UHGV virus genome: UHGV-0121323
Strand: one strand, 5' to 3'
Length of the DNA stretch: 11,692 nt
From: a virus
How positions within the stretch are numbered: the stretch's first letter is position 1; the number at the start of each line of letters is the position of its first letter. The notes beneath the pieces are model-generated. The model worked only from the letters and a program-made list of their open reading frames with translations, was not told the origin of the DNA and did not search any database. Shown one piece after another: positions 10,816 through 11,692 of the stretch. Both the position numbers and the translations under genes were made by a program.

Positions 10816-11139
10816 ATGAAAATGCCATACAAACAAGATTTCATTGCTGCGCTACTTGCCGCCAAGGAGCAGGGTATTGGTGCAATGCTGGCTTTTATCA
10901 TGGCGTATCTGCGTGGTCGCTATAACGGCGGCGCGGTAACAAAAACGCTAATTGATGCGCTGATGTGCGCGATGATTGCCTGGTTCGTTCGTGACCTTCT
11001 GGACTTTATCGGCCTGAGCAGCAACCTCGCCTACATAGCCAGCGTCTTTATTGGATACATCGGCACCGATTCGATCGGCAATCTTATTAAAAAACTTGCA
11101 GCAAAAAAGGCGGGAGTTGACGATGCAAACCAGTCCTGA
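10816..11139 (+). CDS. S: Class I holin (lambda S-type) with dual-start motif MKM
   Basis: GGAGGTGAGG RBS; translation [107 protein letters not shown] (107 aa) is highly similar to lambda S from memory, including the Met1-Lys2-Met3 antiholin/holin dual start. The track ORF from 10696 is an upstream extension running through a terminator. Confidence 0.9.
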
Positions 11140-11572
11140 CGGAATTGCTCTGATAAAAAAATTTGAAGGTTGTCGGCTGACTGCTTACCCCGACCCCGGA
11201 ACGGGAGATGCGCCGTGGACCATCGGCTATGGCTGGACCCATCCGGTTGACGGAAAGCCAGTAAAGCGCGGTATGACTATCGACCAGCAAACCGCTGACA
11301 GGCTTCTGAAAACAGGGCTTGTTGGTTATGAGAATGACGTGCTGAAAGTTGTCAGGGTGAAGCTGACACAAGGCCAGTTCGACGCACTGGTGTCGTTCGC
11401 TTACAACGTTGGGTCGCGTGCTCTTTCCACATCTACACTGCTGAAAAAGCTGAATGCTGGCGATATAAAAGGCGCGGCAGATGAATTTCTGCGCTGGAAT
11501 AAATCAGGCGGAAAGGTGATGCCGGGGCTCACCCGTCGCCGGGAGGCAGAGCGCGCTCTGTTTCTGTCGTGA
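11123..11572 (+). CDS. Endolysin, lysozyme of the T4/P22 gp19 type (GH24)
   Basis: GGGAG 6 nt before the ATG at 11123; translation [40 protein letters not shown]...[12 protein letters not shown] has the catalytic Glu/Asp spacing and the C-terminal RRRE.ERALFLS tail I remember for P22 gp19; start overlaps the holin 3' end. Confidence 0.85.
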
Positions 11573-11692
11573 TTAGCGCACTGGTTAAGCGTTACTGGTT
11601 GCAGCTGCTGGTGCTGGCGTTAATCGGCGTGCTGGCGTTCTTCGTGAACCACTACCGCGACAACGCCATCACTTACAGAGACCAGCGCGATA
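11569..11692 (+). CDS. Rz: Rz-like i-spanin, N-terminal part (truncated by the window end)
   Basis: GTG at 11569 overlaps the endolysin stop; translation (M)[40 protein letters not shown] has an N-terminal TM segment and the NHYRDNAITY motif resembling lambda Rz from memory. Confidence 0.7.
   Translation, partial: MISALVKRYWLQLLVLALIGVLAFFVNHYRDNAITYRDQRD

Follow-up and report, generated by a model that had tools for sequence, protein, structure and literature searches.

The right end of the 11,692-nucleotide stretch of DNA analyzed here (hereafter the window; one strand of the UHGV virus genome UHGV-0121323) carries lysis genes in the order holin, GH24 lysozyme and Rz, with overlapping junctions and downstream of Q and a late terminator, which is the organization of a P22-type lambdoid lysis cassette. 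With a probability of roughly 0.93, this region is where the late operon of a lambdoid (P22/Sf6-like) phage or prophage of Enterobacteriaceae begins, and that operon carries a canonical cassette of this type. The cassette is already known, and its combination of genes is the classical P22 arrangement rather than a new hybrid. It should be regarded as ordinary, because P22 has the same gene combination and because near-identical copies are found in phages and in E. coli prophages. The elements that make up the region are as follows.

9843-10331, plus strand: gene for the late-gene antiterminator Q, 162 amino acids (PF06530, E=1.3e-24; phrog_943, E=3e-89)
10407-10437, plus strand: intrinsic terminator hairpin with a T-run, at a position equivalent to lambda tR′ (terminator scan)
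10684-10710, plus strand: second terminator-like hairpin, GCCCAC...GTGGGC with a T-run, in the leader (terminator scan)
10787-10809, plus strand: leader hairpin of the lambda ‘sdi’ type (RNA fold, -13.9 kcal/mol, z=-2.4)
10816-11139, plus strand: gene for a class I holin of the lambda S family, 107 amino acids (PF05106, E=8.5e-30; phrog_126)
11123-11572, plus strand: gene for a soluble GH24 (T4/P22-type) lysozyme endolysin, 149 amino acids (PF00959, E=6.1e-48; phrog_7)
11569-11692, plus strand: 5′ part of the gene for the i-spanin Rz, 41 codons to the window end (similarity to Louie Rz, PF03245)

Within the cassette, the holin reading frame runs from ATG at 10816 to TGA at 11137-11139, the endolysin frame runs from ATG at 11123 to TGA at 11570-11572, and the Rz frame opens with GTG at 11569 and leaves the window at 11692. 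As the initial annotation had described, the endolysin begins 17 nucleotides inside the holin 3′ end (11123-11139) and its stop codon overlaps the Rz start, the latter by the 4 nucleotides GTGA (11569-11572). The starts at 10816 and 11123 are taken to be the true ones because they are supported alike by homology, by ribosome-binding sites and by the genes annotated in phage Louie, which is 98% identical. Longer reading frames that were called mechanically from GTG at 10696 and from TTG at 11051 were rejected as having real starts. The gene identities proposed at the outset (lambda-family holin, GH24 lysozyme and Rz) hold, as evident by Pfam matches that lie far beyond chance.

The holin matches PF05106 with 103.5 bits against a cutoff of 23.8, over profile positions 8-99 of 99, and it matches the ‘holin/anti-holin’ family phrog_126 at 2e-39. 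The dual-start motif Met-Lys-Met (MKM) that had been pointed out earlier is present at 10816-10824, with Met1 at 10816 and Met3 at 10822. By analogy, the Met1 product would be the antiholin form and the Met3 product the holin form. In a coarse hydropathy check, the Kyte-Doolittle profile follows that of lambda S along the whole protein with a three-segment pattern, and the C-terminus is a charged tail after the hydrophobic segments, as expected of a member of the lambda S family. From the behavior of that family we infer timed formation of holes in the inner membrane by this protein.

The endolysin matches PF00959 with 162.7 bits against a cutoff of 22.3, over profile positions 1-125 of 125, and its matches in the PDB include 9kbq (4e-45), 6et6 (1e-42) and P22 lysozyme 2anv (5e-28). 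The catalytic residues E15 (within FEG) and D24 have the E-x8-D spacing and are aligned with those of the PDB homologues. The catalytic threonine T33 (within WTIGYG) follows the aspartate by 8 residues, versus 5 in the Glu-x8-Asp-x5-Thr motif, because of a 3-residue insertion that is common to SEN34 and Gifsy. A ribosome-binding site, GGGAG at 11112-11116, lies within the holin 3′ end, 7 nucleotides before the ATG. Similarity to lambda R is not detectable, with the best local alignment comprising 6 of 14 residues (score 29), and a tblastn search with lambda R yields no match in loci that carry the window’s type of cassette. Protein identity reaches 99% with the Louie endolysin, 82% with that of SEN34, 80% with those of Gifsy-1 and Gifsy-2, and 46% with P22 gp19. 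On these identities, the endolysin belongs to the SEN34/Gifsy branch. Its C-terminus differs from those of Louie and EC2001 and agrees with the SEN34/Gifsy version, a difference that a short recombined patch at 11530-11560 may explain.

Some GH24 enzymes, such as P1 Lyz and R21, are SAR endolysins, and weaker PDB matches to the R21-type lysozymes 3hde and 3hdf are also obtained, over residues 31-147 only. These observations could be taken to indicate a pinholin plus SAR-endolysin system of the phage 21 type, in which the lysozyme is Sec-exported and the holin only depolarises the membrane. However, the N-terminus of the endolysin is hydrophilic, and 17-residue hydropathy peaks at 0.67 at residue 86, away from the N-terminus. 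There is also no room for a SAR helix, since the catalytic glutamate is already at residue 15, and the holin belongs to the lambda S family with the hydropathy segments of S. The chance that a phage 21-type system is present therefore appears negligible. Lacking a hydrophobic N-terminal segment, the endolysin is soluble and holin-dependent rather than a SAR endolysin, in agreement with its earlier description as a soluble GH24 enzyme that is not of the lambda R type.

The 41 codons of Rz that are contained in the window encode an N-terminal transmembrane segment and the conserved VNHYRDNAITY box, and they match Louie Rz at 39 of 41 residues. The full-length Louie protein is a PF03245 member (E=5.5e-39); the fragment in the window is too short to score alone. 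Embedded in the Louie gene in the +1 frame is an open reading frame for a lipoprotein with an LLAVSGC lipobox, which is Rz1. The embedded Rz1 of the window’s phage would fall past 11692, and intact Rz/Rz1 pairs are seen in relatives. Rz starts with GTG in the window, as does P22 gene 15, whereas Louie, EC2001 and Omnitron use ATG. Over the C-terminal third, Louie Rz shares 49 of 51 residues with P22 gp15, as against only 18 of 51 with lambda Rz.

Not all related loci carry an Rz-like gene. In a set of IMG/VR loci (L036-L039, L044-L045, L049 and L051-L055), the holins are 93-97% and the GH24 endolysins 90-93% identical to those of the window, and no Rz-like gene is found up to 1.8 kb downstream. 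These loci presumably carry a different type of spanin. Some E. coli prophage matches are annotated ‘DUF2570’ at the Rz position.

The initial annotation had regarded the cassette as a specific hybrid, in which the holin and Rz of lambda were joined to the lysozyme of P22 with junctions exactly at gene boundaries. The resemblances that led to this interpretation are real: the holin and the Rz box do have similar counterparts in lambda, the endolysin is a GH24 enzyme like P22 gp19, and nucleotide similarity to the lambda reference cassette (J02459) extends over 10816-11125 and resumes at 11644-11690, and so brackets the endolysin gene. However, the P22 reference cassette (BK000583) brackets the endolysin gene alike, with similarity over 10804-11145 and 11644-11692. 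Because lambda and P22 give the same similarity pattern, the parts called ‘lambda-type’ are equally ‘P22-type’. Lambda is not the better holin donor, since holin identity is 83% with lambda S and 82% with P22 gp13. The Rz N-terminus is 58% identical to lambda Rz and 57% identical to P22 gp15. Both proteins are thus lambda-like as claimed, but not specifically so, and the gene-by-gene alignment to the lambda and P22 cassettes that had been recommended as a check places the holin and Rz at equal distances, with no lambda-specific ancestry. The proposed likeness of the endolysin to gp19 is correct with regard to the GH24 family, but 46% identity is low in comparison with the 80-82% shared with SEN34/Gifsy. 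Furthermore, P22 itself shows the architecture, in that genes 13/13′ encode a PF05106 holin, gene 19 a PF00959 lysozyme and gene 15, in which Rz1 is embedded, a PF03245 Rz, in the same order as in the window. When it is also considered that Louie and E. coli prophages carry the cassette as a single unit at 98% identity, and that breakpoints fall within the endolysin gene as well, a lambda-P22 hybrid of this kind is very improbable, and the P22-type cassette is the reading we retain.

The outcome that the initial annotation had itself named as refuting, an alignment of the whole cassette to one known phage with this combination, is obtained: the cassette forms one block in the Escherichia phage Louie (PQ850616), which is colinear with window positions 10777-11692 at 98.3% nucleotide identity by megablast and whose annotation of the cassette reads holin/anti-holin, endolysin and Rz-like spanin. 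Colinearity extends further to the left, over 10631-11692, in the E. coli EC2001 prophage (98.7% nucleotide identity) and in the Citrobacter phage Omnitron (CP115737; about 94.5%). The left edge of the shared module is therefore 10777 with Louie or 10631 with EC2001 and Omnitron. The holin protein is 100% identical among all of these, and the endolysin differs by 2 residues from those of Louie and EC2001 and by 10 from that of Omnitron. Among 5426 complete E. coli genomes, 35 contain a match to the cassette; in 18 of them the match has at least 80% query coverage, always on the chromosome, and the genes are annotated ‘phage holin, lambda family’, ‘lysozyme’ and ‘lysis protein’. In addition, alignments that span at least 900 of the 916 nucleotides are obtained with 27 IMG/VR loci, at up to 98.5% identity. 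This distribution argues that the cassette is a common reassortant that circulates as a unit and not a cross of lambda with P22.

Several observations were made around this shared module. In EC2001, a tRNA-Asn gene lies between Q and the holin gene (locus L008, 3860-3934), and its 3′ end marks the start of the block shared with the window at 10631. The module junction at 10631 thus coincides with a tRNA end in EC2001; the window has no tRNA there, and an ARAGORN scan of the window for tRNAs finds none. Window positions 10540-10630 match none of the compared loci. Louie (locus L001) carries two hypothetical genes on the reverse strand between Q and the holin gene (2376-3016) and an annotated anti-CRISPR gene right after Rz (4339-4809). 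These genes flanking the Louie lysis cassette are moron-like insertions, and both regions lie outside the window.

The close relationship with these phages also bears on whether the cassette is functional. It could belong to a defective or cryptic prophage and no longer operate, for example if the Rz start is weakened or if genes farther downstream are missing. Consistent with such a state, Rz starts with GTG where the closest relatives have ATG, the window ends inside Rz, and 57% is the largest part of the 11.7-kb window that any single record in the searched collections covers. However, Louie and Omnitron, which are isolated phages, encode an identical holin, the endolysin is only 2 residues away from that of Louie, the reading frames, overlaps and ribosome-binding sites of the cassette are all intact, and P22 gene 15 naturally uses GTG. 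A defective cassette is therefore unlikely, and we continue to view the region as a canonical P22-type lysis cassette.

The remainder of the window, from 1 to 9852, is a typical lambdoid early-right region (immunity, replication, NinG and phosphatase), in which the following genes are recognized.

3089-3826, minus strand: S24/HTH repressor
3887-4132: Cro/YdaS-like protein
4191-4544: CII
4725-5615: replication initiator, no Pfam match
5590-7041: DnaB-like helicase
7781-8230: DUF1367 protein
8573-9184: NinG
9181-9852: Ser/Thr phosphatase

The Q gene that follows is kin to those of Sf6, Huey and many E. coli prophages, and these matches end between about 10324 and 10539. The Q gene is thus part of another mosaic module than the lysis cassette. 

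Mosaicism is also evident within the cassette type, although the partners are not those that had been proposed. Outside its own group, the nearest holins are those of the Klebsiella phages KO-TP1 (93% protein identity) and ST405-OXA48phi1.3 (92%), and nucleotide identity of 83-84% with these phages spans 10779-11127, ending at the endolysin ATG. On the other side, nucleotide similarity to the SEN34/Gifsy endolysin region begins at 11103, which is 20 nucleotides before the endolysin ATG. Among the 80 IMG/VR loci whose holins are closest, a sample that is biased to the best holin matches, the enzyme downstream of the holin is GH24 in 62, lambda-R-type in 17 and neither in 1. Lambda-family holins hence pair interchangeably with GH24 or lambda-R-type endolysins, with GH24 the commoner partner in these 80 nearest loci. 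Even identical holins in IMG/VR loci are paired with endolysins that are 77-99% identical and with Rz proteins that are 55-100% identical. A 30-nucleotide sliding identity plot places breakpoints inside the endolysin gene itself, near 11170 in locus L011 and near 11380 in locus L018. Junctions are therefore not limited to gene boundaries, as had been supposed.

The broader proposal of modular exchange among lysis genes is correct, but such exchange is routine. Lambdoid lysis modules consist of holin, lysin, Rz and Rz1, and three holin types and three lysin types have been described among six P22-like phages (PMC2629481). The additional suggestion that the parts of the cassette must cooperate functionally imposes a weak constraint at most. 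Canonical holins release soluble endolysins non-specifically, and swaps of lysis genes are common for this reason. Since the holes made by the holin are non-specific and the spanin acts on its own, the three lysis functions do not depend on particular contacts with one another and are freely reassorted among lambdoid phages.

Three stretches remain conserved across intervening genes that are unrelated or highly diverged. The first (10780-10824) is the 45-nucleotide leader that includes the hairpin and the dual start, and it is 87-89% identical even beside a holin of 32% identity. The second (about 11103-11127) comprises the holin 3′ end and the endolysin ribosome-binding site, and the third (11644-11692) encodes the Rz VNHYRDNAITY box. 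It is possible, but doubtful, that these stretches act as homology ‘linkers’ through which holin and endolysin genes are replaced by homologous recombination. Such replacement would correspond to the long-standing modular-exchange idea of Susskind and Botstein. Alternatively, the stretches may be conserved purely for translation and function.

The sequences upstream of the cassette resemble those by which lambda controls its late genes. A segment of 38 nucleotides at 10422-10458 is 89% identical to the stretch directly after the T-run of lambda tR′. Right after the Q stop codon, TTGACA at 10338 is a candidate -35 element for the late promoter. No promoter passed the criteria of a sigma-70 scan over 10200-11692, and this pR′ candidate is for that reason a reading of the sequence only. 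If it is correct, the leader RNA from pR′ to tR′ would measure about 60 nucleotides, far below the length of the lambda 6S RNA. The second terminator-like hairpin (GCCCACCGCGCCGTGGGC followed by a T-run) resembles the first in sequence, is located 105 nucleotides before the holin ATG, and lies inside the block from 10631 that is shared with EC2001 and Omnitron. An Rfam scan of the whole window identified no family at the gathering score.

The leader hairpin holds the upstream Shine-Dalgarno sequence GGAGG (10803-10807) in its 3′ arm, and a second GAGG (10809-10812) is positioned 9 nucleotides ahead of the Met3 codon. When folded individually, the leaders of lambda, P22, SEN34, KO-TP1 and ST405phi1.3 each form a hairpin at the equivalent place, and in all compared cassettes this hairpin covers the Shine-Dalgarno sequence. 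Lambda and P22 have stems of different sequence, and loops are variable among cassettes of the window’s own group. RNAalifold counted no compensatory pairs in an alignment of six leaders, a count made uninformative by the MAFFT alignment, in which the stems of lambda and P22 are misaligned. Conservation of the structure is consequently a qualitative statement, since individual folds were used instead of covariation. Lambda S is known to have a dual start that yields S105 and S107 (PMC9636201). The arrangement in the window matches the lambda ‘sdi’ element, and by analogy it would partition initiation between an S107-like antiholin and an S105-like holin.

If the region operates like its well-studied relatives, Q would permit transcription from the late promoter to pass the tR′-like terminator and enter the cassette. 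Translation would then produce holin from Met3 and a scarcer antiholin from Met1, the latter with the extra residue Lys2, and the leader hairpin over the upstream Shine-Dalgarno sequence would set the ratio of the two. The holin is expected to build up in the inner membrane until it abruptly opens large, non-specific holes, through which the pre-folded cytoplasmic GH24 lysozyme would exit to cleave peptidoglycan. Rz/Rz1 would afterwards disrupt the outer membrane.

The practical value of these findings is the correct annotation of a dual-start holin, a soluble GH24 endolysin and an Rz gene that is truncated by the window. The region is otherwise a textbook illustration of lambdoid mosaicism in the lysis module and matters little beyond this. 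Rennell and Poteete in 1985 and Casjens et al. in 1989 reportedly already made functional comparisons of the P22 lysis genes 13, 19 and 15 with lambda and T4 genes.

Among known systems, Louie, Omnitron and EC2001 share the cassette itself but differ from the window in having other upstream modules, other Q genes and an ATG start for Rz. The Klebsiella phages KO-TP1 and ST405-OXA48phi1.3 differ by a lambda-R-type enzyme of 158-159 amino acids after the holin. SEN34 (a Salmonella phage) and Gifsy-1 and Gifsy-2 provide the nearest named endolysins, including the insertion between the aspartate and threonine, and their cassettes likewise comprise a PF05106 holin that begins with MKM, an Rz gene and the conserved leader at 10780-10824; however, their holins belong to a divergent branch of 111 amino acids, the source of the 32% identity given above.

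Lambda resembles the window in its holin family and holin identity, the MKM dual start, the 17-nucleotide geometry of the S/R overlap, the position of the leader hairpin, the Rz VNHYRDNAITY box and the 38 nucleotides just past tR′. It is unlike the window in that R is an unrelated lytic transglycosylase and Q is of a different type, and its Rz agrees poorly with Louie Rz in the C-terminal third. P22 is unlike the window in the divergence of its holin and, more so, of its endolysin, in the N-terminal transmembrane segment of Rz, and in a holin that starts with MKKM where the window has MKM. Nevertheless, P22 has a dual-start holin, overlaps of holin with lysozyme and of lysozyme with Rz, and a GTG start for Rz, all as in the window.
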